In this document: piece by piece, positions 39,003-57,178 of the stretch
How positions within the stretch are numbered: the first letter of the stretch is position 1
Layout of the letters: every line of letters starts with the position of its first letter
NCBI GenBank assembly: GCA_964291285.2
Contig: OZ219787.1
Location: 1,344,001-1,408,000 of the forward strand
DNA from: Alphaproteobacteria bacterium
GTDB taxonomy: Bacteria > Pseudomonadota > Alphaproteobacteria > Bin95
Direction: 5' to 3'
Length of the DNA stretch: 64,000 bases
Program-made: the position numbers and the translations under genes
The notes under the pieces: generated by a model
The model's input: the letters and a program-made list of their open reading frames with translations, nothing else
Told to the model about the DNA's origin: nothing
Databases searched by the model: none

Positions 39003-40130
39003 TTGGCAGCCATCCGCCTCACCCAGCGCCGGGTCGATACCCTCCGGCCCCGCAAGTCCGTCCGCAATGTCCGGGACGCCGGACTGAAGGGCTACGGCGT
39101 GCGCGTCATGCCTTCGGGCGCGAAGCGCTACTTCATCCACAGCCAGCACCGGGGCCACCGGGTCTGGAAGATCGTCGGCGACGCGGCGGTCATGACCGAG
39201 GCCGACGCGCGCGCCCGCGCCCGGTCCATGCTGGCCGCTCTCCGCGACGACAGGGACATCGAAGCGGAAGCGTCCGGGGCCGCGCTGTTCGAGACCGTCG
39301 CCGAGGAGGTCTTCACGCGCTACGGCAGGCGCTGGAAGCCGCGCACGCTCGCCGTCAACCGCTGCTATCTCCACAACCAGATCCTGCCCTTCTTCGCGGG
39401 CCGACCGATCGCGGAGATCGACCGCGAGGAGGTGCAGCATTGGTTCCGCTCGCTGCATGCCACCCCGGCGGCGGCGAACCGGTCGGCGCCGATCCTGTCC
39501 GTCATCATGCAGCAGGCCGAAGCCTGGGGGTATCGCCCCGATGGCGGCAATCCCTGCAAGGGCATCCGGCGCTACCGGCAGAAGCGGTCGGAGCGCTTCC
39601 TGTCCCCGGAGGAATACCGCCGCCTCGGCAGGGCGCTGGACCGCCATGAGGCCCGGCAGCCCTTCCGGGTCGCGGCGCTCCGCCTGCTTCTGCTGACCGG
39701 CTGCCGCAAGTCGGAGATCGTCACCCTGGAATGGCGCTTCTACCGCGATGGCAGGCTCTACCTGGTTGATTCCAAAACCGGTCCCCGCACGGTCTGGCTT
39801 TGCGAGGCGGCGCGGGAGGTCCTCGACGGGCTGCCGCGTTCGTCGCGTTTCGTGTTCCCCATCGGAGACCGTCGCACGCCCTGGAGCTGGCTGGACGCCT
39901 TCTGGATGCAGTTGCGCGCCGAGGCGGGCCTCGAGGACATGCGCCTGCATGACATGCGCCACAGCTACGCCAGCATGGCGCTGTCGGGCGGCGAGACGAT
40001 CCGCACGGTGGGCCGGCTGCTGGGCCATGAGAAAGCGGCGACCACGCTGAAATACGCGCATCTCTCCGACGCGACGGTCAGGGAGACGGTCGAGGCGCTG
40101 GCGCCACTGCTCTCGGGAGCACAGTCGTGA
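39003..40130 (+). CDS. Tyrosine recombinase/integrase (arm-binding type)
   Basis: GYGVRV, TGCRKSE, SKTG, HDMRH, LLGH, KYAH. Confidence 0.92.
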   Translation: MAAIRLTQRRVDTLRPRKSVRNVRDAGLKGYGVRVMPSGAKRYFIHSQHRGHRVWKIVGDAAVMTEADARARARSMLAALRDDRDIEAEASGAALFETVAEEVFTRYGRRWKPRTLAVNRCYLHNQILPFFAGRPIAEIDREEVQHWFRSLHATPAAANRSAPILSVIMQQAEAWGYRPDGGNPCKGIRRYRQKRSERFLSPEEYRRLGRALDRHEARQPFRVAALRLLLLTGCRKSEIVTLEWRFYRDGRLYLVDSKTGPRTVWLCEAAREVLDGLPRSSRFVFPIGDRRTPWSWLDAFWMQLRAEAGLEDMRLHDMRHSYASMALSGGETIRTVGRLLGHEKAATTLKYAHLSDATVRETVEALAPLLSGAQS

Positions 40131-41241
40131 CGGGCAGGGCAAGGAAGGTCCGCCTGACGGATGCAGGCGTCGCAAGATTGAAGCCCGGCAGCACCGAATA
40201 CATCGTCAGGGACATTCGGGTTGCCGGTCTGGGCGTGCGGGTCCGTCCGTCCGGACATCGCGGTTTCGTGTGGCACGGGACCGTGAACGGCAGGATGGTG
40301 CGGACGACCGTAGGCGCGGTCGCGCTGATGACGGTGGAGGAAGCCCGGGTCGCATGCCGGGCCCTGCTGGACGGCTCGCATCCGCTCTGCGCCGCAGACC
40401 CTGCCGCCCGGACTGCCGTTCCCCTCTTCCGGGATTTCGTCATGGAGGACTGGTTGCCGGCACGCCGGGGTCATTGCAGCCCGGCCTGGGGCGAGCGCGT
40501 GGAGCATGTGATCCGGCACCGGCTTCTGCCCGCCTTCGGGGCGCTTCGCCTCGACCGCATCGCCAGGCCCCATGTCGAGCGCTGGTTCGACGCCATGAGC
40601 CGCAAGACGCCGGGCGCCGCCAACATGACGCTCGCCGTGTTGCGCCAGATCGTGACCGCCGCCAGGGCCGCTGGCCATGTCGGCGCCGATCCTGCCGCAG
40701 GCGTCAGGCCGAACCCGGGCCGGAAGATGACCCGCTTCCTGTCCGCAGAAGAGATCGCCAAGCTTCACCGTACCCTGGACCGGCTGGTGCGGGAACGGCC
40801 CTCGCGCCGCCCGCAGGCCGACATCATCCGCCTGCTGCTGCTGACCGGCTGCCGAAAAAGCGAAATCCTGACACTTCGATGGTCGGAGGTCGATGGCGAC
40901 GTGCTCAGGCTGGCGGAGACCAAGACGGGGCCGCGCACGGTATGGCTGAGCGGGGCGGCGCAGGCCGTGATCGTCCGCCAACCGCGAAACGGAAGCGCCT
41001 TCGTGTTTCCCTCGCCCGGAGACCCGGCAAGGCCGCAATCCGGCAATCTCGGCCTCTGGCTCCTGGCAAGGCGGGAAGCGGGCATCAAGGATGTCCGCCT
41101 GCACGATTTGCGCCATACCGTCGCAAGCCAGGCCGTGGCCCGCGGCGTGCCGCTGTGCGGCGCGACAATCAACTTGAGACTTCCGCGTCAATCAGGATGA
41201 GACGAGGGAAGGCGGCGGCCCGGAACGGAGGGAGGGCGTAG

Positions 41242-43691
<2,450 letters not shown>

Positions 43692-44517
43692 CCCGAGGCC
43701 ACCAGCTCGGCCGAACTGCCCTCACACTCACGGCCCGCGGGGATCGCCTCCGCGGGCCGCTTCATCTCCGGCCCACCGGACCGCCGCGACAATCAAAAAT
43801 CCTCGGAACCTGTCGCGCCGCGACAATCAAAACCAAAAACCGCTTGCAATCCCCGCCGCGCGACACAATCCTCTCCCTCGTCGCTGCCGCCGGGAATCTC
43901 ATCCTGATTGACGCGCGGCTCTCATCCAGATTGTCGCGCTATACCGCTGCCCACCGTCGCCCGGATGCTCGGTCATGCGCAGCCGACCATGACGCTCAGA
44001 TACGCCCATGTCGGGGATCATGAGGTCGAGGACGCCGCAGAGCGCATCGGGACGAGAATCGCGGCGGCCATGACAGCGCGCTGAAGACCCCCTTGCCGAA
44101 CATGCGTGGTCTCCCGGGCTGCGGCTGGCTTGACCATGAGGAGGTGGACCGGGCGGCATCGGAGGTAGAAGGCCGGCTGGATTCGCTCGGGTCTCCGGGT
44201 CCGGAGCGGCCGGGTTTCCGCTCCCTCACGCGGTCGAAGGACCCGTATCTGGCGATCCGTCCGGTTACGGATGAGCGTTCGCGCCTCCCGGCCGATCTGA
44301 GGTCGGAGACCGGGGTCGTGGTGAGGCGCGGGAATGAGTAGAAGATGTCGCCATCGGCCTGCGGCCCTTGTTCCCTCCACCGGCGCTGGCGGTGTTGTGT
44401 CTGCCTTGGCGGTTGGGGCGGTTCATCCCCCCCCCCCCCGCGCCAGCGGGGAACGCGCAATGAAGAGCATGAGTTCGGCCAAGGTGGACGGTTCATCCCC
44501 GCGCCAGCGGGGAACGC

Positions 44518-44902
44518 ACTGCCACGGCTGGACCGTCTGCGCCGGCGGACGATACCCGCGAATCCGGGCCTTGGCGTGCCCGTGCATGACCGGATTTTCG
44601 ACGCAGACCCGCGGGATCGGGGCATTCAGGAATTCGGCGAACAGAGCGCAGGCATCCTGAAGCTCGCTCCAGAGATTGCACTCATGCAGCCAGCGCACGC
44701 CGCTGTTGGCCAGCCGCGTGCATGGCGGATGGGCGATCAGCATATCCCACTCGCCGGAGAGCAGGTCGCGCGCATCGCCGACAATGTGACGCTCGGGGCG
44801 GCCCTCTGTCTCCTCCAGGTCGCAGGACCAAGCGTCATGGCCGCGCCGGAGGAAGGCATCGCGGACGGTGCCGGAGTACTCGCAGGCGACCAAGACCCTC
44901 AT
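44518..44902 (-). pseudogene. 5' part of a phage-type DNA cytosine methyltransferase inside the mega-spacer
   Basis: MRVLVACEYSG, WSCDL, WDMLIAHPPC, VENP; cut by the repeat at 44517. Confidence 0.75.
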
Positions 44903-45261
44903 TCCTGGCCGCCGAAGGGCTCATCGTGCTGCATATCCCGCGCATGCATCCAAGTGTCGTGCAGGCACTCCATATAGGGCTCGTCATACGGCTTTTTGGC
45001 CGCCGCAGCGTGTTTGAAATTGTCGTAGACGATGTCGGCCACCGCATTGGCGAGCAACTCTGCGAACTCCTTCCGGTGCAGCGTGGTGCGCCAAGCATAG
45101 TCGGCCTTTGGCGTGTGCTCAATCTCGTAGGGGTTTGTCGGCAAGTAGGCGGCGAGGACGGCGGTCAAGTGGGCTTCCGTGCGCGCCCGCACCAGCAGCA
45201 TGTCCTCATGCTCCCGGTGTTGCACTACAGAGATAAAGCCGAAGGGTGTGTAGAGCCACAT
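44899..45261 (-). CDS. Hypothetical phage-like protein (120 aa) inside the mega-spacer
   Basis: MWLYTPFGFISVV...LLVRAR...ADYAWR...YDNFK; GGGAGA RBS; ATGA overlap with the methylase ORF. Confidence 0.75.
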   Translation of the reverse strand: MWLYTPFGFISVVQHREHEDMLLVRARTEAHLTAVLAAYLPTNPYEIEHTPKADYAWRTTLHRKEFAELLANAVADIVYDNFKHAAAAKKPYDEPYMECLHDTWMHARDMQHDEPFGGQE

Positions 45262-45718
45262 GGTGTCATTTCTCCCAGATGTCGTCGGTTCATCCCCGCG
45301 CCAGCGGGGAACGCGGAACCCGGACAAGGACGCCGCCTATCAACGTCGGTTCATCCCCGCACGAGCGGGGAACACTCCTAATGATCTGCTCGTCCTCCGA
45401 TGGCAACCGGTTCATCCCCGCACGAGCGGGGAACACATTGAAAGGTCGAGTGCTAGCCAGCAAATGGCCGGTTCATCCCCGCACGAGCGGGGAACACGGG
45501 GGGAGGAACGCGGCGCTGGGGTTCCCCACCGGTTCATCCCCGCACGAGCGGGGAACACCTTCCATCCTGCCAATTGGTCGACGCCAGTACCGGTTCATCC
45601 CCGCACGAGCGGGGAACACCGTAAGCCTTCGGCGTAGACCGCCTGTCGCCTTTCTCCGGGATCTGGGAGGGTATGCGCTCGGATGTGGGCGCGCGTCGCA
45701 GGTGCCCACCAAGGATAA

Positions 45719-46138
45719 GTGGACACTATGCGGATGTGGGACGCAGCCGAGCATGCAGGCTCCGGGGTCGACGGTCGGGGGCGCCGCCTTCGCCGTCGGT
45801 GGAGCGAGGCGCGCAAGCGCCTGATCGTTGCGGAGAGCTACCAGCCCGGGGTTTCGGTTTCGGTGGTGGCGCGCCGACATGACGTGAACGCGAACCTGGT
45901 CTTCAAGTGGCGGGGCCAGTATCGGGAGCTGGCGCGCGTGGTGGGCGGCTTCGTCCCGGTGGTTGTCTCTTCGACGGAAGGGGCGGAGCCGGCGAAGCTG
46001 CTGCCGGCGCCGGAGGCCGAACCGTCTTCCTCCGGACGGATCGAGATTGCGCTGGCGGACGGCTCGCGCGTGACGGTCGACCGGGATGTGGACGCGGCGG
46101 CGCTGTCGCGGGTTCTCGGGGTTCTGGGGCGGCGATGA
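45719..46138 (+). CDS. tnpA: IS66 accessory protein TnpA (HTH)
   Basis: RRRWSEARKRLIV, VARRHDVNANLVFKWR. Confidence 0.88.
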   Translation: MDTMRMWDAAEHAGSGVDGRGRRLRRRWSEARKRLIVAESYQPGVSVSVVARRHDVNANLVFKWRGQYRELARVVGGFVPVVVSSTEGAEPAKLLPAPEAEPSSSGRIEIALADGSRVTVDRDVDAAALSRVLGVLGRR

Positions 46139-46482
46139 TCCCGGTTCCGAGCGGGGCGCGGGTCTGGCTTGCGACGGGCGTGACGGACATGCGTCGCGGG
46201 ATGAACACGCTGGCGCTGCAGGTCCAGCAAGGTCTCGGCCGCGATCCGCATGCGGGCGATCTCTTCATATTCCGCGGACGCAAAGGCGATCTCGTGAAGA
46301 TCCTCTGGACTGACGGGATCGGGACCTCGCTCTACGCCAAGCGTCTGGAGCGTGGCCGGTTCCCCTGGCCGGCTGCTTCGGGCGAGGCGGTGTCGATCAG
46401 CGCGGCGCAGCTTGGCTATTTGCTGGAAGGGATCGACTGGCGGAACCCGGTCCGGACCTGGCGGCCGTCGCGGGCCGGCTGA
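46135..46482 (+). CDS. tnpB: IS66 accessory protein TnpB
   Basis: TDMRRGMNTL, FIFRGRKGDLVKILW, KRLERGRFPWP. Confidence 0.92.
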   Translation: MIPVPSGARVWLATGVTDMRRGMNTLALQVQQGLGRDPHAGDLFIFRGRKGDLVKILWTDGIGTSLYAKRLERGRFPWPAASGEAVSISAAQLGYLLEGIDWRNPVRTWRPSRAG

Positions 46483-46553
46483 CGGGCGGCAAATGGACTC
46501 ATCCGACAGGATTGTCATGGCGGCGGGGCGGTTGTTGTGATTCGCTTCCGGGC

Positions 46554-48200
46554 ATGCCGGACGGATCGGACATCGATGCTCTGAAGGCGGCGCTGGCTGC
46601 GGCGGAAGTCAAGGCGACCGAGGCCGAGGAGCGGGCCGCAGTTGCGGAGGCCGAGGCTTCCAACGCCGTGGCGAAGGTGTCGGACGCGGAGGCGCAGATC
46701 GCCTCCCTGAAGCTGATGATCGAGAAGCTCCGTCACGCGCTCTTCGGCCAACGATCGGAGCGCAAGCAGCGCCTTCTCGACCAGATGGAGCTCCAGCTCG
46801 ACGAGCTCGAGGCGAGCGCTACCGAGGACGAGTTGGCGGCCGAACAGGCGGCTACCGGCACGACGCAGGTCAAGGCGTTCACCCGCCGCCGCCGGTCCGG
46901 GCGCAAGCCGTTCCCCGAACATCTGCCGCGCGAGCGCGTGGTGGTGCCGGCGCCGAGTGCCTGTGAGTGCTGCGGCTCGCAGAAGCTCTCGAAGATCGGC
47001 GAGGACATCACCGAGACGCTGGAGGTCATTCCGCGCCAGTGGAAGGTGATCCAGACGGTGCGCGAGAAGTTCACATGCCGGGACTGCGAGAAGATCAGCC
47101 AGCCGCCGGCGCCGTTCCACCCGACGCCGCGCGGCTGGGCGGGCCCCAACCTGTTGGCGATGATCCTGTTCGAGAAGTATGGGACGCACCAGCCTCTGAA
47201 CCGCCAGCGCGACCGCTATGCGCGCGAGGGCGTCGATCTCAGCCTGTCGACCCTGGCCGACCAGGTGGGCGCCTGCACGGTGGCGCTGAGGCCGCTGCAC
47301 GACCTGATCGCAGACCATGTGCTGGCGGCCGAGCGTCTGCATGGCGACGACACGCCGGTGCCGGTTCTGGCCAGGGGCAAGACCGACACCGGGCGGGCCT
47401 GGGTCTATGTCCGCGACGACAGACCGTTCGGCGGTCCGGACCCGCCGGCGGCCCTGTTCCACTACTCGCGGAACCGCTCGGGCGATCATCCGGTCGAGCA
47501 TTTGCGGAGCTACGCCGGCATCCTGCAGGCCGACGCCTTTGCCGGATATAACCGGCTCTACGAGCCCGCCCGATCGCCGGGGCCCGTGACCGAAGCTGCC
47601 TGCTTCGCCCATGCGAGGCGCAAGTTCCACGAGCTCGCCGACATCGCGGCCGGCAAGAGGCGCGGCAGGAACGCGCCGCCGATCTCGCCGCTGGCGATGG
47701 AAGCCGTGAAGCGGATCGATGCGCTGTTTGACATCGAGCGCGGGATCAACGGCGAGATCGCCGAGCGCCGCCTCGCGGTGCGCCAGGAACTGAGCGCGCC
47801 GGTCCTGGCCGAACTCGAGACCTGGATGAAGGCCGAGCGCGCAAAGCTCTCCCGCCATTCCCCCGTGGCCAAGGCCATGGACTACATGCTCAGGCGATGG
47901 GACCGCTTCGCCCGCTTCCTCGACGATGGGCGCATCTGCCTGTCAAATAATGCCGCTGAGAGGGCGCTCAGAGGTATTGCCCTGGGTCGGAAGTCATGGC
48001 TGTTCGCCGGCTCCGACCGCGGCGGCAGGCGCGCCGCAGCCATGTACACCCTGATCGGCACCGCCAAGCTCAACGATGTCGATCCCCACGCCTGGCTCGC
48101 CGACGTTCTCGGCCGGATCGCGGGAACCCCGCAGAACCGGCTCGACGAACTTCTTCCCTGGAATTGGGTTCCGGAGAAGATGCTCGATCAAGCCGCATAA
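46554..48200 (+). CDS. tnpC: IS66 transposase TnpC
   Basis: FGQRSER, CECCG, HGDDTPV, QADAFAGY, CFAHARRKF, SNNAAER, LLPWNW. Confidence 0.95.
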   Translation: MPDGSDIDALKAALAAAEVKATEAEERAAVAEAEASNAVAKVSDAEAQIASLKLMIEKLRHALFGQRSERKQRLLDQMELQLDELEASATEDELAAEQAATGTTQVKAFTRRRRSGRKPFPEHLPRERVVVPAPSACECCGSQKLSKIGEDITETLEVIPRQWKVIQTVREKFTCRDCEKISQPPAPFHPTPRGWAGPNLLAMILFEKYGTHQPLNRQRDRYAREGVDLSLSTLADQVGACTVALRPLHDLIADHVLAAERLHGDDTPVPVLARGKTDTGRAWVYVRDDRPFGGPDPPAALFHYSRNRSGDHPVEHLRSYAGILQADAFAGYNRLYEPARSPGPVTEAACFAHARRKFHELADIAAGKRRGRNAPPISPLAMEAVKRIDALFDIERGINGEIAERRLAVRQELSAPVLAELETWMKAERAKLSRHSPVAKAMDYMLRRWDRFARFLDDGRICLSNNAAERALRGIALGRKSWLFAGSDRGGRRAAAMYTLIGTAKLNDVDPHAWLADVLGRIAGTPQNRLDELLPWNWVPEKMLDQAA

Positions 48201-49638
48201 GCCGGCTCACGCTCAAAACCACCCCGCTCCGCACGCACTCGCCGCAAAGAAGGGCCTACCTACCCCTGCGGTCTTCGGCGGACGCATACGGAACACCTCA
48301 CGAATGAGCCTGGCGGCATGGAGATGAGCGGTTCATCCCCGCACGAGCGGGGAACACGTCTCCTCATCGAGCGCCAGGTCGTCGCCGAACGGTTCATCCC
48401 CGCACGAGCGGGGAACACCCTGGCCGTGATGCTGCTGGGCTTGCTCGCGGCGGTTCATCCCCGCACGAGCGGGGAACACTTCTTCCACATGCCTTCAGCA
48501 TGGATTTCCGCCGGTTCATCCCCGCACGAGCGGGGAACACTAGGCTACCTGCGTCTGGGCGATGAGCGCGTTCGGTTCATCCCCGCACGAGCGGGGAACA
48601 CTCGGTCGGATCGGGAATCGACGGCCCGCTGCCCGGTTCATCCCCGCACGAGCGGGGAACACCCCCTGCCCTCGCCCAGCGCAACCATGGCCGCCGGTTC
48701 ATCCCCGCACGAGCGGGGAACACGCGCACGCGACTAGAGGCGGTGTGTGCTCCCCCGGTTCATCCCCGCACGAGCGGGGAACACTATCAGCGCCGCGTGG
48801 AGGTCCAAATTGCGGGCGGTTCATCCCCGCACGAGCGGGGAACACCAGCGCGCCGGCGGGGTAGTATTTCGCCGTGTCGGTTCATCCCCGCACGAGCGGG
48901 GAACACGGGCGCGGCGCGGCTGCGATCCTCAAGGGCGGCGGTTCATCCCCGCACGAGCGGGGAACACCCGTTGCTGAGCGTGACGATCCCGCTCAAGCGC
49001 GGTTCATCCCCGCACGAGCGGGGAACACGCGAGGTCGGCGGCGGTGGTGGTGGTGTCGGTCGGTTCATCCCCGCACGAGCGGGGAACACTCGGCGAGGTA
49101 GGCCGCGTCGCGCTCGGCGCGCGGTTCATCCCCGCACGAGCGGGGAACACCATGGTCTCGCGTTGTCCGCCGACGCCACGATCGGTTCATCCCCGCACGA
49201 GCGGGGAACACGAAAGCGGAGGATGTGGTTTGGGGGCTGGAAGCGGTTCATCCCCGCACGAGCGGGGAACACGTGGTGGCGGTGGTGGCGGTGGCGGTGC
49301 TGCTCGGTTCATCCCCGCACGAGCGGGGAACACGCCGTCAGAACTTTGTAGCCGGCGGCCTCGGCCGGTTCATCCCCGCACGAGCGGGGAACACCTCCAG
49401 CCGATGTTGCGGAAATTGATTTGGGCCGGTTCATCCCCGCACGAGCGGGGAACACCGGCGATAGCGATGCTGCTCATATCTGGTCTCCGGTTCATCCCCG
49501 CACGAGCGGGGAACACGTGTGCTGTCTGGCGTGCTGTGCGTCTGTCTGTGGTTCATCCCCGCACGAGCGGGGAACACTGCGAAAAAAAAGTTTTCAACGA
49601 TTTCAACGACGGTTCATCCCCGCACGAGCGGGGAACAC

Positions 49639-49699
49639 TCTTTCTGGAAGAGCTTGATATGGCAGGCATTTTACGATGTCAAACAGCGCACCGGCCAAA
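49639..49699 (-). promoter_or_regulatory. CRISPR leader (short, may overlap the cas2 3' end)
   Basis: Relatively AT-rich segment between cas2 stop and first repeat; repeat orientation matches E. coli-type GTGTTCCCCGC...AACCG on the minus strand. Confidence 0.6.
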
Positions 49700-50957
<1,258 letters not shown>

Positions 50958-50961
50958 GCGT

Positions 50962-51666
50962 TCAGAGCCTCCGGATCAACATGAGCCCGCAACCGAAGGC
51001 TTTGGCCGGACCGAATCCGCGCGCGATGGCGGACGGCAACAGATCCGGATCCTGCACCTCCAGAACGCCTTCGAAATCAAGGGAAGAGAACGACAAGGCG
51101 CTTTTGCCGGCACCGCGGTCGATGCGGTGCTGGCGGTAACCCTCGCACAGCAACTCTTCCCCCCGTATCTCGAAACCGGCCTTGCAGCCCTGCCTGGCGA
51201 GCCAGTCGAAGCCCTTTCCCCGGATGGCGGCCATGCGGTGTTCGGCGCGCGAACCGTCCCGCAGCGGGTGAAGCGTATCCATCACGACATCGTGCCGGGG
51301 CGCATGGCGCTTGCCCGGCTCCTTTGCCTTGCGGACCGTCGGGTTGGCCCGCAGCGAGAACCGCAGCCGGTCGCCTGCCGCCAGGACGGGGGCGAAGGTT
51401 TTGGGTTCGTCGATCTCGAACAAGCCATGACGGTCTTCAGGAGGCCGCGCCGAAAGCACAAGAAAGGCGCCGTCATCCATCCGTCGCCAGAGAAAATCGC
51501 GGCGGCGGTCCGGCCCGTCTGCAAACAAGGACCAGACCAGGCGCCGGTCCACATCGACGGAACGGTGGCTGCCGGGTCCGGCGTCCTGTTGCAGCAGGGG
51601 CATCAGGGCCTTGACGGACGCAGCGCTTCCGAGCCGGACACGGGACAGCCAGCAGGCGTCAGTCAT
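50962..51666 (-). CDS. cas6e: Cas6e (CasE)
   Basis: FSLRANPT, FEGVLEV, G-rich loop GFGPAKAFGCGLM. Confidence 0.93.
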   Translation of the reverse strand: MTDACWLSRVRLGSAASVKALMPLLQQDAGPGSHRSVDVDRRLVWSLFADGPDRRRDFLWRRMDDGAFLVLSARPPEDRHGLFEIDEPKTFAPVLAAGDRLRFSLRANPTVRKAKEPGKRHAPRHDVVMDTLHPLRDGSRAEHRMAAIRGKGFDWLARQGCKAGFEIRGEELLCEGYRQHRIDRGAGKSALSFSSLDFEGVLEVQDPDLLPSAIARGFGPAKAFGCGLMLIRRL

Positions 51667-52427
51667 TCCCCATCCCCCAGGTCGATCACCACCCGCTCTT
51701 CCCGGTCTCTAAACTGCCATCGTGTGCGGCTTCCGATGCCGTCGCGCCGACGTTCGAGGAAACCGCCCGCCGGCGCTCCCGGGGCATCGGCATCAAAAGC
51801 GATCTCCCGCCCGGCGGGCAAGCCGCGGCGAAGCCGTTCCAACGCCCATGCTTCCAACGCGCCGGGCCCTTCGCCGCCGTTTTCGGCGGCAACTGCCGGG
51901 CGCCGAAGCGCAAGGGCGTCCATCAAATTGGCCGTTTCGACGATTTCCGGGTCGAGGGGCAGTCCGAGCGGAGCCGATTTGCGGCCCAGGTAGAGCGTGA
52001 AACGGGGCCGGCGCAGCGCTGCGGCGATCTCATCCAGATCGACCGCGCCGCCGGAGCGCAACCAGAGTGCGGCCGTGAAACAGGCATCCGAACGCCATTC
52101 CCGGCTGGAAAGCACCGTGTTGATCCGTTCGGCCTCCAGTTCCTCACGGCGAGTCTCAAAGCTCTGGCCCCGCCGCGCCGCGGGAGTCTGAGCCGTATGG
52201 TAATCGATGAAAGGGCGGCCGGGCGCGTCTGTCCTGACGGCGTAATGCAACCCCTCTTCCAGCGCACGATGGGCATCATCGTCGCTCCGTTCGATCCCCA
52301 GCGCGGCGGCAACCAGCCCGAGGACGGCGGAGCGTCCCGGCCGCGACCAGCCCATGCGTCGCTCCCCGATGGCAATCTCGCCCAGGGAACACATCGGCGC
52401 GTAGAGCGTGAAGAGCAGGAACCGCAT
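51663..52427 (-). CDS. cas5: Cas5e (CasD)
   Basis: PGRSAVLGLVAAALG, DYHTAQ, YLGRKSAP. Confidence 0.92.
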   Translation of the reverse strand: MRFLLFTLYAPMCSLGEIAIGERRMGWSRPGRSAVLGLVAAALGIERSDDDAHRALEEGLHYAVRTDAPGRPFIDYHTAQTPAARRGQSFETRREELEAERINTVLSSREWRSDACFTAALWLRSGGAVDLDEIAAALRRPRFTLYLGRKSAPLGLPLDPEIVETANLMDALALRRPAVAAENGGEGPGALEAWALERLRRGLPAGREIAFDADAPGAPAGGFLERRRDGIGSRTRWQFRDREERVVIDLGDGE

Positions 52428-52431
52428 GGCG

Positions 52432-53484
52432 TCAGGCCAGGGCGAAATCGATGAATTCCGCGAGGGTCCCTTCGCCTTTCGCAACGTCCACAGACAGGCG
52501 ATCCGCGGCGCAGGGCCCGTAGGCCCGGTCGAGTTTGTCCCTGAACTCCTCCAGCGCATGCACCGAAGCCTCGCCCTGGTCAGCGCCGGAGACGGGCTTC
52601 AGGAATGCGGCGGCGAGACTGCGCGGCTGGGCATTTCCCTTTTCTGCTAGTGCGTAGAAGGCGCGTGCGTGGCTGGCGAAGCTTGCCTGCTTGCCGCGCG
52701 GTGCCACTGTCGCGGCGGCCTCGGCCAGCGCGGCGACGCTTGCGTTGCCCACGACCCGGTCCCCGCCGAGGTTTTCCAGCAGCAATCCCCGGTCCACGCA
52801 GAGATAGAGGTAGAATACGCCCGCGCCGAACTCCTGGACGCCGACGAATCCCGCTCCGGCGTCTTCCGGCTCGTCACGCGACTTGAGGTCGTCCACGGCG
52901 GTATAGTAGTCGTCTTCCGCGATCGCGCGGTGGGTGGTGATGGCGTGCGCCACTTGCACCGCGGCCTCGCGGTTGAATTTGGGGTCATCCGCCAGCATCC
53001 GGCCGAACATGGCGATATCCGCGGCCGTATCGGTTCGGCGCAGTACGTCCTCGGGTTCAGGTGCTGCCGGTTCTTCGCCAGCGAGTGCGCGATCCGCCAG
53101 CGCGAACGCTTCCGCGCGCTCCTCCGGCGAAACGAAGGCCAGTTGTTCGATGAAGGCCGGGTTCCGGTCCGTCTCCGGCTTCAGCTTTCCGAAGACATCG
53201 GCAATTTTCCGGGCGGCCGCGAGGGCTTCCTGTTCGCCTATGCCGCCCTCGATCAGGTGCCGGTGCAGATCCTCACCGAGCCGCTGCGTGCGTCTGGCGA
53301 GATGGCCGTCAAGCTTGCTCTGGAATACATCGGAGGTCCGCCAGGCGCGCTTCAGGCTTTGCGAGGAGATGCGCAGGCGCGGGGCGCCGCCGAACAGGAC
53401 GCTTTTCGGCCGGCCGGTATCGTCGCGGTTCAGGTTGGACGGGCCGAAGGCCGTCAGCAGGTGCAATTGCAGGAAATCGCTCAT
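52432..53484 (-). CDS. cas7: Cas7e (CasC)
   Basis: SNLNRDDTGRPK, RISSQSLKRAWR, DIAMFGRMLA, DYYTAVDD. Confidence 0.95.
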   Translation of the reverse strand: MSDFLQLHLLTAFGPSNLNRDDTGRPKSVLFGGAPRLRISSQSLKRAWRTSDVFQSKLDGHLARRTQRLGEDLHRHLIEGGIGEQEALAAARKIADVFGKLKPETDRNPAFIEQLAFVSPEERAEAFALADRALAGEEPAAPEPEDVLRRTDTAADIAMFGRMLADDPKFNREAAVQVAHAITTHRAIAEDDYYTAVDDLKSRDEPEDAGAGFVGVQEFGAGVFYLYLCVDRGLLLENLGGDRVVGNASVAALAEAAATVAPRGKQASFASHARAFYALAEKGNAQPRSLAAAFLKPVSGADQGEASVHALEEFRDKLDRAYGPCAADRLSVDVAKGEGTLAEFIDFALA

Positions 53485-54023
53485 GCAGCGGAGTCTCCCT
53501 GTGGAGCGGTTGAAGAGTTGGATGGCGCGGCGCGACCCACACCGTAATAGTTGAAGATCCAGTGCTTCCTTACGCCGTCGCCCCAATAGAGGACGGATCG
53601 GGACAAGTCCCGCACGTTGACTGTCCCGCCGGCCAGACGCACGAGGCGGCGCATCGCATCCATGAGCTCATCGTTACGCTCGATCTGCAGCAGGCGACGG
53701 AAGCGACCTTCGGACATGACCGCTTCCGCATCGTCGAGCGACCTGCGACCTACGGCGCGGGCGACGGGCCGGTCCTCATCATCCCGGACCCACGCGAGAA
53801 TGCCGGCAAGCGCGGCCACCCGGTCCTTGTTGTCAAAATGGGGCAAGCGCTGGATCAGGCGCAAAGTAGCCGTCTCCCGCATGGCTTCGAGCGGCGTTCC
53901 AGCCCGGCGCAAATGTGCAAGCGCCGCTTTCTGCGAACCGGTCTGCACGCCGTTCTCCGGGTTCAAATCCCGCCACCATGCAGCGGCGATGGAACCGGCC
54001 CCTTTGGGAATCGAATCGGTCAT
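53481..54023 (-). CDS. cse2: Cse2/Cas11 (CasB)
   Basis: AHLRRA, SEGRFRRLL, WIFNYY; position between cse1 and cas7. Confidence 0.85.
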   Translation of the reverse strand: MTDSIPKGAGSIAAAWWRDLNPENGVQTGSQKAALAHLRRAGTPLEAMRETATLRLIQRLPHFDNKDRVAALAGILAWVRDDEDRPVARAVGRRSLDDAEAVMSEGRFRRLLQIERNDELMDAMRRLVRLAGGTVNVRDLSRSVLYWGDGVRKHWIFNYYGVGRAAPSNSSTAPQGDSAA

Positions 54024-54670
54024 GCGGCCTCCTGCCTGTTGACGGCGCCGACAGGTTCGGGCGCCGGGATGCCGAGTTCGCCGAACAGCGCCCTGCCGTC
54101 CTTGCCCCGCCCGCCGAGTGCAAGATGCAGATAGAAGCGCGCCCGGACATGGCGTTCCATGCTCCGGTTCTCCAGTGCCTCGCCGGGTGCGACTTCGTCG
54201 AAAAGGCGGAGCGCGGGCGCTTCCATCCGCTTCGCCCAAGCAAGGCGCGCTTCCAAACTCGGATCGTCGGGATCTGCGCCGCTGCGCGTGCGAGTTGCCG
54301 TTTGGACGTCGAAGAATGCCTTGCGGAAAGGTGCCTCGGTCTCCCGGAAGAAGCATTCCGCAATAAAGCCGTAGTCGCCGGCTGCATCGGCAGGCCGGTC
54401 GTAGAGAGCTGACTTCACCGCGCGAACGAGCAGCCGCGAAACCGTTTCCGCGCCCCTGACTGCCTGATGAATGAAGCTCTCCAGACACTCGCGCGTTTCC
54501 TCTTCCGCGAGCAGCGGTAGAGGCCATTCCCCCTCGATCCATGCGCGCGCCTTCATATTGTCCATGTCGTAACCGAAGGCGGTGAACCGGGGCTTTTCGT
54601 CCATCGCGAACTGTCCGCGTTCGGCTATAACATGGCGGATAACCCGTGCGGGCTGCCGCAACCCGTCGGC
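54020..54670 (-). pseudogene. cse1: 3' fragment of Cse1/Cas8e (CasA), truncated by ISAs1
   Basis: FGYDMDNMKARAW, FFRETEAPF, LFD; frame runs into the IS end at 54671. Confidence 0.8.
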
Positions 54671-55285: not shown

Positions 55286-57073
55286 TCAGCCTCTGGGCGC
55301 GATCATAATCGCGTCGAGGGCCTCTTGGGCGCGGGCGGCGTAGTGCCGGTTGGCCTCGGGTACATATCGGAAGCGTCCGTCGCAGCGCACGATAGCGATG
55401 GCCGCGTTGCTCAAGCAGGCCAGATTTCCGGGCAGGTGGCGCACATATGCCCGGCAACGGTCTTCGTCATAGGTGAAGTCACGCACATAGTGCACACGGT
55501 TCTCAATGTGCCAGTGGTTGCGCACCAGATCGAGAAGCTCCTTGGGGCCGGCTCGCTCTGCGCCAAGCGACGTCAGGCTCCAGGTGACCTCGATGCTGCG
55601 CTTGCCGGTTTTGAGCATCTTGCGCTCGCGTTCCATGCGCATTGCCTGGCGGCGCCCGTGAAGGTGGGCGTAGCCGTCCCACTCGGCAGCGCAGAGGTCG
55701 ACGACGGCGCAGCGTCGGCGCTCAATGCGACCATGGCCCTTGTCGACGGTTTCGTGCCAGGGCGCATCGCTGAAGTCGATCGCCTTGAGGTCTTCGAGGA
55801 TGGTCTGCTGGTTGCCCTTCACCGCGCTGACCACGTAGTCGGCACGGCGTTCGAGCAGGCAACGCGCGGTCTCGTGCTGGGCGTGCATCGCATCGATGGT
55901 GACGATCCGGCCTGTGAGGTCGAGACCGCTGGAGAGTTCGCGCACGGCCGGGATTTCGTTGCTTTTGGAGCTGACTTCGACCTGCCCGAGGACCACGCCG
56001 GTGTCATGCGCCACCGCAGCGACCATCCTCCTGCGCCGGTCTTCGCTCTGCTTCGAGGCACCGCGCAAATCCTTTCCGTCCATGGCCACAGGCGCGTGCG
56101 CACTGCTGTGCTGTCCGGCCCACTGGCCGATGGCATTGTCCAGGGTCTGTGGCGGCAGGGCGGCGAGGATGTTGTGGAAGGTGGTGACCGCCGGCGGCGT
56201 GTAGCACTGCCTGGATGGGCTCCAGAAGGCGCCCACCGCCTTGAGTTGCTTCTGGGAGAGCAGGGCGGCGAACTGGGCGAAGGCGTTCACACCCCGGTAT
56301 CCGGCAAGCCGGGCGGCAACGGCCAGCGTCAGAATGGTGGTGAGCGCATAGCGCTTGCCCCGGGCATGGCGGTATTCGGGCACCTCGCCCAAACACTCGA
56401 ACAGGCTGCGCAGCCGGGGCGCCGCCATCGGCTCGGTGTGCTGCTCAGCGTTCCAGTCTGCCGGTATCTCGGGATGGCTCAGCGCCTCGGGGGCGCCGTG
56501 TGTCAGTTCGAACACGAAGACCTCCTTGGGCTGGCCGTGGTGACGCCAGCGCGCCACCCCTCCGGGCTCGCGGGCAAAGCCGCGCGTCAGACCCAAAGAG
56601 CGCCAGTTGGCCGCGCGGTAGCAGGTGCCGGCGAAGCGCGAGACGTCCACAAACGTCTCCGCCACAACAGCCGGATAGCCATGCGCCGCCCGCAGGTCCT
56701 GCGACAGCCGCCGCACGCTCAGCCCCAGCACCCGCGAGGCAAGGTTGGGAACCCGCTCAGGCGTCAGGATGACAAAGCGCGAGTTGTTGGCAACCAGATG
56801 CAGGCGACGGAACTGCTGCTCCGCCGACCACCCGATCCAGCGGTCCCGCGCTCCCACCTTGAACGCTCCAGGCTGCCAGCCAACCAGGGCAAGCCAGGCC
56901 TCGCCATGAACCGCGACATGGCGCAGACCCTTGCCGATGATGCCGTGGAACCGCAGATAGTGGTGCGCCGCTACCAAATCGTCCCAGCGCCGGTGCTCCC
57001 GTGCCCCCCAGGTCGGGCGCACCGTGACCGCGCGAAGATCAACCCAAACACCCGCAAACAGAAACCTCGCCAT
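55286..57073 (-). CDS. DUF4338(DruA-like)-ISAs1 transposase fusion
   Basis: N-term HHYL, RDRWIGW, NNSRF, NLASRVL, ETFVD, GTCYRAANW; C-term AMDGKDLRG, KSNEIP, DAMHAQ, VKGNQ, GHGRIE, RNHWHIENRVHYVRD. Confidence 0.85.
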   Translation of the reverse strand: MARFLFAGVWVDLRAVTVRPTWGAREHRRWDDLVAAHHYLRFHGIIGKGLRHVAVHGEAWLALVGWQPGAFKVGARDRWIGWSAEQQFRRLHLVANNSRFVILTPERVPNLASRVLGLSVRRLSQDLRAAHGYPAVVAETFVDVSRFAGTCYRAANWRSLGLTRGFAREPGGVARWRHHGQPKEVFVFELTHGAPEALSHPEIPADWNAEQHTEPMAAPRLRSLFECLGEVPEYRHARGKRYALTTILTLAVAARLAGYRGVNAFAQFAALLSQKQLKAVGAFWSPSRQCYTPPAVTTFHNILAALPPQTLDNAIGQWAGQHSSAHAPVAMDGKDLRGASKQSEDRRRRMVAAVAHDTGVVLGQVEVSSKSNEIPAVRELSSGLDLTGRIVTIDAMHAQHETARCLLERRADYVVSAVKGNQQTILEDLKAIDFSDAPWHETVDKGHGRIERRRCAVVDLCAAEWDGYAHLHGRRQAMRMERERKMLKTGKRSIEVTWSLTSLGAERAGPKELLDLVRNHWHIENRVHYVRDFTYDEDRCRAYVRHLPGNLACLSNAAIAIVRCDGRFRYVPEANRHYAARAQEALDAIMIAPRG

Positions 57074-57178
57074 GACCGGCACACTGCCATATCAAGAAAA
57101 AAATAGCCACCCCGGACCCCACCTCAACATGGCCCAAAGGCAGACAATTAATTCGCCCTGCCCGGCGCGCCCCGTTTG

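Follow-up and report, generated by a model that had tools for sequence, protein, structure and literature searches.

How does a CRISPR array whose ordinary spacers are all of one length come to hold, in the place of a single 32-bp spacer, 768 bp of DNA which carry a whole gene? The question is raised by the one type I-E CRISPR-Cas locus of the window, by which the whole 64,000-nucleotide stretch analysed here is meant (positions 1,344,001 to 1,408,000 of contig OZ219787.1, from an Alphaproteobacteria bacterium), the locus being transcribed on the minus strand. The 768-bp stretch, hereafter the insert, is a genuine, inherited phage fragment that replaces a spacer in the oldest surviving part of the array. 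As to how it got there, capture by the CRISPR integrase is favoured over recombination of the array with a phage through two spacers, with a confidence that stays short of even.

A regular-expression scan of the locus identified 30 repeats, giving 29 intervals, 27 of which are exactly 32 bp long, one 2709 bp and one 768 bp. The 2709-bp interval is composed of an IS66-family insertion sequence (IS), its 8-bp duplication and one 32-bp spacer, and the ordinary spacers are exactly 32 bp in 28 of 28 cases. With its regular 61-bp repeat-spacer units and 29-nt stem-loop repeats the array is of type I-E, and the pattern of its repeats, searched in the genome (6.1 Mb, 5 contigs), gave 29 matches, every one of them at this locus, which is hence the sole array of its type. 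Two kinds of repeat were distinguished, the main type R (27 leader-side repeats) and a variant R' (3 trailer-side repeats), which differ at 3 positions, two of these in the loop, and which fold alike into a hairpin with a 7-bp stem and a 4-nt loop. The insert occupies 44518-45285, where a 32-bp spacer would be expected, and is bounded by identical, complete 29-mers of R' (CGGTTCATCCCCGCGCCAGCGGGGAACGC on the plus strand). The part of the array around it reads as follows, from the trailer towards the leader.

44419-44456, minus strand: last surviving repeat, an R' with 13 C instead of 4 (C run 44427-44439), from the scan
44457-44488, minus strand: oldest surviving ordinary spacer, 32 bp, from the scan
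44489-44517, minus strand: R' repeat that borders the insert towards the trailer, from the scan and the hairpin fold
44518-45285, minus strand: 768-bp foreign insert in spacer position ('mega-spacer'), between identical repeats, unique in the genome and spanned by a contig of sequencing run X1 (see below)
45286-45314, minus strand: R' repeat that borders the insert towards the leader, with the same sequence as 44489-44517 and the same hairpin fold
45315-45346, minus strand: ordinary 32-bp spacer between the last R' and the first R, from the scan
45347-45619, minus strand: five R repeats with four 32-bp spacers, severed from the leader by the IS66 element, from the scan

A first-pass annotation of the stretch had described the two repeats, the 768 bp between them and the 32-bp neighbours, and its coordinates and description proved correct in the scan. 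What it overlooked is that the insert, which sits between the second and third oldest surviving repeats, belongs, in a degraded locus, to the stretch of the three oldest repeats that are left.

The same annotation had held an assembly chimera to be a real alternative, meaning that a co-present phage was threaded into the array by the assembler through two spacer matches. Evidence on this point came from two public runs (X1 and X2, library kind unrecorded) which contain the stretch; both belong to one study that may include the sample of origin, and they are therefore not fully independent. Support was taken from k=31 Logan contigs, whereby X1 represents an independent assembly, possibly of the same organism. 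A single X1 contig (1182 nt) spans 44194-45374 with 0 mismatches and one gap, an extra C in a C run, the C run of the last repeat having 14 C in X1, one more than in the window. The coverage check proposed in the annotation was borne out, the insert-spanning contig having a depth of 107 and its neighbours depths of 108.2, 104.1, 100.9 and 100.4. As the bases flanking the two R' copies differ, it was reasoned that the 31-mer graph stays unbranched only if reads carry both junctions; a spacer-repeat-spacer path at comparable depth should have branched the graph and broken the contig, which disfavours a chimera. Within X2, a contig of 973 nt spans 44401-45374 with one single-nucleotide polymorphism (SNP; 45268 A>G), X2 being a second, slightly different carrier of the same structure. 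The deposited genome, moreover, comes in just 5 contigs. By the unbranched X1 contig at flank depth and the SNP variant in X2 the structure is confirmed as real and not an assembly chimera, and an artefact is regarded as scarcely credible. Also within X2, a contig over 44191-44430 has a depth of 422 and thereafter departs into a repeat that is a different variant, the insert having a depth of only 8.9; a commoner sister strain without the insert may lie behind this contrast, contig depths and a multi-copy flank being too weak to carry the claim. In the commoner X2 contig the repeat is normal, with yet another loop variant.

What, then, does the insert carry? It is filled by two co-oriented minus-strand open reading frames (ORFs).

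44899-45261, minus strand: ORF120, a complete 120-aa gene of an uncharacterised phage family, from HMMER homologues and alignment
44518-44902, minus strand: phage DNA methyltransferase, N-terminal 128 codons, cut at the repeat, from phrog_757

By its homologues ORF120 is a complete phage gene, to which no family match assigned a function. It starts 24 nt from the leader-side repeat, with a GGGAG some 10 nt upstream of the start codon ATG. With homologues of 104-125 aa it can be aligned over the entire length, and in an alignment of 50 sequences, ORF120 itself being the first, it retains 13 of 13 invariant residues. The family is large, as at E<=1e-3 a full HMMER scan yielded 3281 cluster representatives, a number that falls to 289 at E<=1e-10; in most cases they are 104-140 aa long and aligned from residue 1. 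A word-based search, by comparison, recovered only 3 homologues. Among viral contigs 104 relatives were confirmed (searched with a 6-sequence alignment, the 50-sequence alignment being too diverse), and tblastn against cultured phages gave 6 records, all below 60% identity and all annotated 'hypothetical protein', as are all ORF120 clusters of the protein atlas. Searches of Pfam, NCBIfam and PHROG gave no match. The AlphaFold2 model (mean pLDDT 94.9) matched no PDB fold at E<=1e-3 and had 2 unnamed viral structural matches. Residues conserved in the family are an N-terminal MW, a V-R-A-R segment in which both arginines are invariant, and the motifs DY and NFK; the family is perhaps worth characterising in its own right.

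The ORF120 stop overlaps the start of the methyltransferase as ATGA (44902-44899). The methyltransferase fragment matched phrog_757 'DNA methyltransferase' with an E of 2.5e-37 over profile positions 15-147 of 247, hence as a truncated member, and neither Pfam nor NCBIfam gave a match. At related methyltransferase loci 159 of 160 ORFs are 190-250 aa long, with a median of 208, by which measure about 62% of the enzyme (128 of about 208 residues) is present and its C-terminal ~38% is missing. The homologues run on beyond the break point after QPWQ or QPWW, mostly with FGH (12 sequences compared); the reading frame of the insert enters the repeat directly after QPWQ, which means that the gene was cut inside a conserved motif. 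Its HPPC and ENP stretches may be read as C5-type (cytosine) motifs.

In several respects the gene content is as the first-pass annotation had it. A complete 120-aa ORF with a ribosome-binding site was found again in the end-to-end homologues, the upstream GGGAG and the ATGA coupling, and both ORFs do lie on the transcribed strand of the array, the cas genes and the leader being on the minus strand as well. From its cytosine methyltransferase the 5' part of a phage DNA methyltransferase could be retained but not the label 'cytosine', and its 'typical phage operon' had to be given up: an ORF120 relative is contained in 0 of 160 methyltransferase loci, and a methyltransferase lies within 2.5 kb of the ORF120 family in 0 of 80 loci of that family.

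To judge from its sequence, the insert is foreign, phage-type DNA, because it is unique in the 6.1-Mb genome, neither ORF120 nor the methyltransferase has a paralogue there, its DNA is absent from the 60 relatives searched and both protein families are phage-borne. Three weak 30-nt matches to the insert were seen in relatives, and two of them, which were examined, are not in an array. Relatives of the methyltransferase were confirmed 587 times in viral contigs, the best of the 80 kept having 69% identity, and 434 times in genome contigs, the best of the 80 kept having 74%, whereby the listed titles of the latter are mostly Alphaproteobacteria. A source phage closer than 74% amino-acid identity was found neither among phages, plasmids, viral and metagenome contigs nor among genomes and relatives.

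How the fragment is placed between its repeats narrows the ways in which it may have arrived. Its boundaries ignore genes, one being 24 nt upstream of a start and the other mid-motif in the next gene. As coding homology reaches to 0 and 24 nt from the two repeats, no remnant of a 32-bp spacer is left; complete, identical repeats without such a remnant are the footprint of repeat duplication and not of insertion into a spacer. As a consequence, the insert either is the 'spacer' itself or has replaced one or more spacers exactly, and three routes fit, i.e., integration, double recombination and exchange with a repeat-bearing element. Features of a transposon, the lack of which in the insert the first-pass annotation had already noted, were not found by family and inverted-repeat searches either: no transposase family matched, 44400-45400 holds no inverted repeat of at least 12 nt and there is no target duplication. 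Rfam gave 0 matches in 43700-45700. Degenerate repeats hidden inside the insert were considered and rejected, since coding homology covers the whole of it.

We infer, as the favoured though still tentative explanation, that the type I-E Cas1-Cas2 complex carried out a full-site integration of an untrimmed 768-bp phage fragment, whereby the repeat would have been duplicated as usual. Cas1e-Cas2e would have made the usual staggered attack at both ends of one repeat, the joined 3' ends being those of a long fragment which had escaped trimming to 33 bp, and gap filling would then have duplicated the repeat. The two genes in question are found beside the array.

49700-50023, minus strand: cas2e, above the NCBIfam cut-off
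50004-50957, minus strand: cas1e, NCBIfam match over profile positions 3-268 of 269

Both proteins look intact, as they are full-length and above curated cut-offs, and this, together with the footprint of repeat duplication, the foreign origin of the insert, the lack of a transposase or inverted repeats and the reality of the structure, would fit an integration. At the repeat at 49549 the spacer-adjacent base (at the plus-strand start) is a T where the other repeats have a C. In the E. coli type I-E system this base of the repeat comes from the incoming DNA, and the substitution would fit a base which arrived with its prespacer by way of an E. coli-like integrase.

Several points weigh against this explanation. 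All 28 other spacers being exactly 32 bp, the system measures strictly, and keyword searches of open-access text, which were non-exhaustive, brought up no case in which Cas1-Cas2 had integrated DNA the size of a gene in vivo. The source phage, in which the protospacer-adjacent motif (PAM) beside the 45285 end would be read, was not found in the collections named above, and the PAM argument used below against recombination relies on the PAM of E. coli and not on that of this system. Finally, this is a single case.

The same structure would result exactly if the array had once held two adjacent, co-oriented spacers from one phage strand, with outer ends 768 bp apart, and a double recombination had copied the intervening phage DNA. 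Host or phage recombinases would have used the 32-bp matches as arms during an infection, whereby the repeat between the spacers would have been replaced. For phage recombinases, arms of 35-50 nt are enough. Recombination between a spacer and its phage target has been documented (Varble et al. 2019, as cited in PMC8616872), and primed adaptation is described in the available text of PMC9699676 as yielding several same-strand spacers from one phage region. As this course of events requires co-oriented spacers, the PAM of the older spacer must, on the transcribed strand, stand directly before the insert's final 32 nt. The predicted site (44552-44550, minus strand) reads TCG, or ATC with a one-base shift, and not AAG, the motif assumed from E. 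coli, where AAG sites supply >95% of primed and about half of naive type I-E spacers, according to the same text (PMC9699676). The TCG site thus weakens the case for recombination through two spacers, to the extent that the E. coli motif may be assumed here.

No spacer has a match from which the PAM of the system itself could be read. The 28 spacers had no match of at least 29 nt in their own genome and gave nothing usable against 257 loci, the 22 leader-side ones had only low-complexity or repeat matches in the phage collection and the oldest (44457-44488) had no exact match in metagenome contigs. What also speaks against recombination through two spacers is that no other spacer of the array matches the insert and that the ancestral sister array with two spacers was not found in genomes of the genus, order and class or in metagenome contigs; arrays sharing any of these spacers were absent from 16 other genomes of the genus, 36 others of the order, 400 others of the class and the metagenome contigs. 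The repeat pattern as such is present in 3 of 37 genomes of the order and 8 of 401 of the class (own genome included, with the first places per genome listed). Recombination through two spacers is rated as less likely than not and a little below integration. The two origins proposed in the first-pass annotation, untrimmed integration and recombination of two spacers, hence remain the two best, the second having lost ground by the TCG site. Also rejected was the integration of a whole phage by a single crossover at one spacer, with an internal deletion afterwards, since in that event the insert would begin and end with the same 32 nt, and its ends differ.

The third route that fits is an exchange, mediated by repeats, with a phage or plasmid which carried solitary repeat units or a mini-array, so that its inter-repeat DNA was swapped in. 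That host repeats recombine with solitary repeat units of viruses has been put forward (Faure et al. 2019, cited in PMC8616872), and it speaks for such a donor that the repeats near the insert, three in number, form a variant of their own, R' being 3 nt off the other 27. However, the methyltransferase is cut mid-motif exactly at the repeat, which means that the donor must already have carried the same anomaly. Moreover, 0 of 240 related phage and prophage loci (1.59 Mb) contain a sequence within 6 substitutions of R', a result for relatives, none of which is known to be the donor, and R' resembles the trailer-end repeats of an ageing array, an intermediate variant being found in the two-repeat array of a same-genus relative, G012. 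Such an exchange is accordingly held to be improbable. In that array (contig C4:398427-398531) the repeat is one change from R' and two from R.

A capture by end joining was weighed as well, in which a staggered double nick across the repeat was filled in and a stray phage fragment ligated between the repeat copies. The fragment ends would then be arbitrary and the structure flanked by repeats just as observed, but a Ku homologue (PF02735) had 0 matches in a genome that scores 100% complete, and this course is considered very improbable. The weight remaining after the routes set out here falls to unknown causes.

How far integration by Cas1-Cas2 would depart from known behaviour becomes apparent from comparison. 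With ordinary type I-E acquisition the insert has in common its position in the array, the duplicated intact repeat flanks, its phage origin and the adjoining adaptation genes; it differs in measuring 768 bp and not 32 bp and in carrying a whole gene. In type I-E the Cas1-Cas2 ruler is considered to set spacer length tightly, and the long inserts reported are mostly transposons (PMC4524480). 'Long spacers' of at least 100 nt have been reported from arrays of E. coli, P. aeruginosa and S. thermophilus, most of them resembling transposons as far as the available text goes (Kupczok et al. 2015, PMC4524480). They resemble the insert as long non-repeat stretches between repeats, but the insert is without transposase, inverted repeats and target duplication, which the IS66 element of the same array has; a similar case may be contained in table S4 of that work. 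Beyond this, no insert that bears a gene, is not a transposon and lies between intact repeats was met with in the non-exhaustive keyword searches of open-access text.

Recombination between spacer and protospacer (Varble et al. 2019) is alike in being an exchange over short homology, a double event of which could yield the structure. It is unlike the present case in that the PAM predicted from it was not read at the insert. Varble and colleagues reportedly observed phage-array joint molecules which promote transduction, and not phage genes fixed in the array. Mini-arrays and solitary repeat units carried by viruses (Faure 2019; Medvedeva 2019) likewise link repeats to phage DNA and have been proposed to recombine with host arrays. 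Here, in contrast, the repeats stand in a host array with cas genes, and the 240 phage loci searched hold nothing repeat-like. Casposons are kilobase-sized and leave a target duplication. They are the nearest working analogy for the favoured mechanism, as in both a Cas1-type integrase joins DNA to a target. The casposase, a member of the Cas1 family, integrates casposon DNA, and a mechanistic link between transposition and spacer acquisition was drawn (PMC6977970, in its available part). Unlike casposons, the insert has neither terminal inverted repeats nor a casposase gene, and its duplicated target is the CRISPR repeat.

Essentially, the locus offers a clean, read-supported case of non-transposon phage DNA with a whole gene exactly between intact repeats, which suggests that the machinery of spacer capture or of recombination may now and then take up gene-sized DNA. 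If integration by Cas1-Cas2 holds true, the 33-bp ruler can fail completely in vivo and arrays can, if rarely, capture whole genes; the CRISPR integrase would then retain a casposase-like ability to insert long DNA, with a bearing on the casposon origin of adaptation and on the writing of long DNA by Cas1-Cas2. If instead two spacers recombined with a phage, a natural 'recombineering' by way of 32-bp spacers would constitute gene flow from phage to host through immune memory. The two make different testable predictions, and either would be a notable exception to the way arrays grow.

Does the insert serve any purpose at present? The answer depends on the state of the locus, of which the following further parts were identified.

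45621-48289, plus strand: IS66-family element at a repeat/spacer junction with an 8-bp duplication (GGAACACC), from TnpB_IS66 and DDE_Tnp_IS66 matches and the junctions as read
48329-49638, minus strand: portion of the array nearest the leader, 22 repeats with 21 spacers of 32 bp between them, from the scan
49639-49699, minus strand: leader, 61 nt, with TTGACA, a 17-nt gap and TATCAA, read from the sequence
49700-53586, minus strand: cas2e, cas1e, cas6e, cas5e and cas7e, all above NCBIfam cut-offs, with Pfam matches
50962-51666, minus strand: cas6e, above the NCBIfam cut-off
54125-54622, minus strand: what remains of cse1 at its C-terminal end (profile positions 333-495 of 504), next to a transposase gene of the ISAs1 family

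The IS66 element severs eight trailer-side repeats (with the insert and seven other units) from the leader, whose TTGACA and TATCAA form a putative promoter and which is followed by its first repeat at 49638-49610. Next after cas7e comes cse2, above the NCBIfam cut-off, and then the remnant of cse1, the N-terminal part of which (positions 1-319) is found on another contig, C2:533987-534988. The sole cas3_core match above the cut-off lies at C2:453701-454954, ~80 kb from the cse1 piece, and with neither a whole Cse1 nor Cas3 the interference module at the locus is not intact. An IS-linked rearrangement between replicons seems to have torn the cas operon apart. Beyond the last repeat, 29 nt are followed by 76 bp from the interior of an insertion sequence of 1.6 kb, of which there are ~30 copies; as the flank consists of element pieces after these 29 nt, the original trailer has been lost. 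The locus is thus decaying, its array split by IS66, its cse1 split between replicons and its trailer gone.

Within this setting the insert stands as one isolated relic in a degraded locus, showing no sign that it functions at present, and we infer that today it is probably inert cargo, neither a guide nor a working gene cassette. Promoter-like sites numbered 0 in 44000-45700, where 0.2 were expected, and transcription from the leader must cross 22 units and a 2.7-kb IS, which counts towards an inert insert; a Cascade without intact Cse1 and a methyltransferase without its C-terminal ~38% likewise count towards the lack of a present function. Cas6e could in principle cleave at both R' hairpins and so release an ~800-nt RNA, which would be far too long for a guide of Cascade. 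With no promoter-like site and with IS66 between insert and leader, the 'integron-like gene capture' and the ~800-nt crRNA doubling as mRNA, both put forward in the earlier annotation, find no support, and no evidence came to light that the insert is expressed, no search aimed at RNA having been made.

Some minor observations concern the ends of the locus. The leader-proximal spacer (49578-49609) is AT-rich and has a run of eight T on the transcribed strand, within a region of ~60-70% GC. An ISAs1-family transposase gene (55286-57082) adjoins the cse1 remnant. Searched in the genus, the trailer flank gave only pieces of repeated elements and the two-repeat array of G012. No tRNA gene was found in the window. 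A P4-type tyrosine integrase gene (Arm-DNA-binding, Phage_int_M and Phage_integrase domains; 40127-41200 and 43944-44084) is split by an IS21 element with istB at 42852-43691 and its end at 43943, whereby the integrase remnant (the C-terminal 141 bp) comes to lie 335 bp from the end of the array. Between the two, the trailer flank (44111-44389) is a mosaic which includes a piece of 221 bp that recurs in 3 copies elsewhere in the genome (87-88% identity) and in copies of ~75% in relatives; one copy of this piece is located ~600 bp upstream of the cse1 fragment on contig C2.

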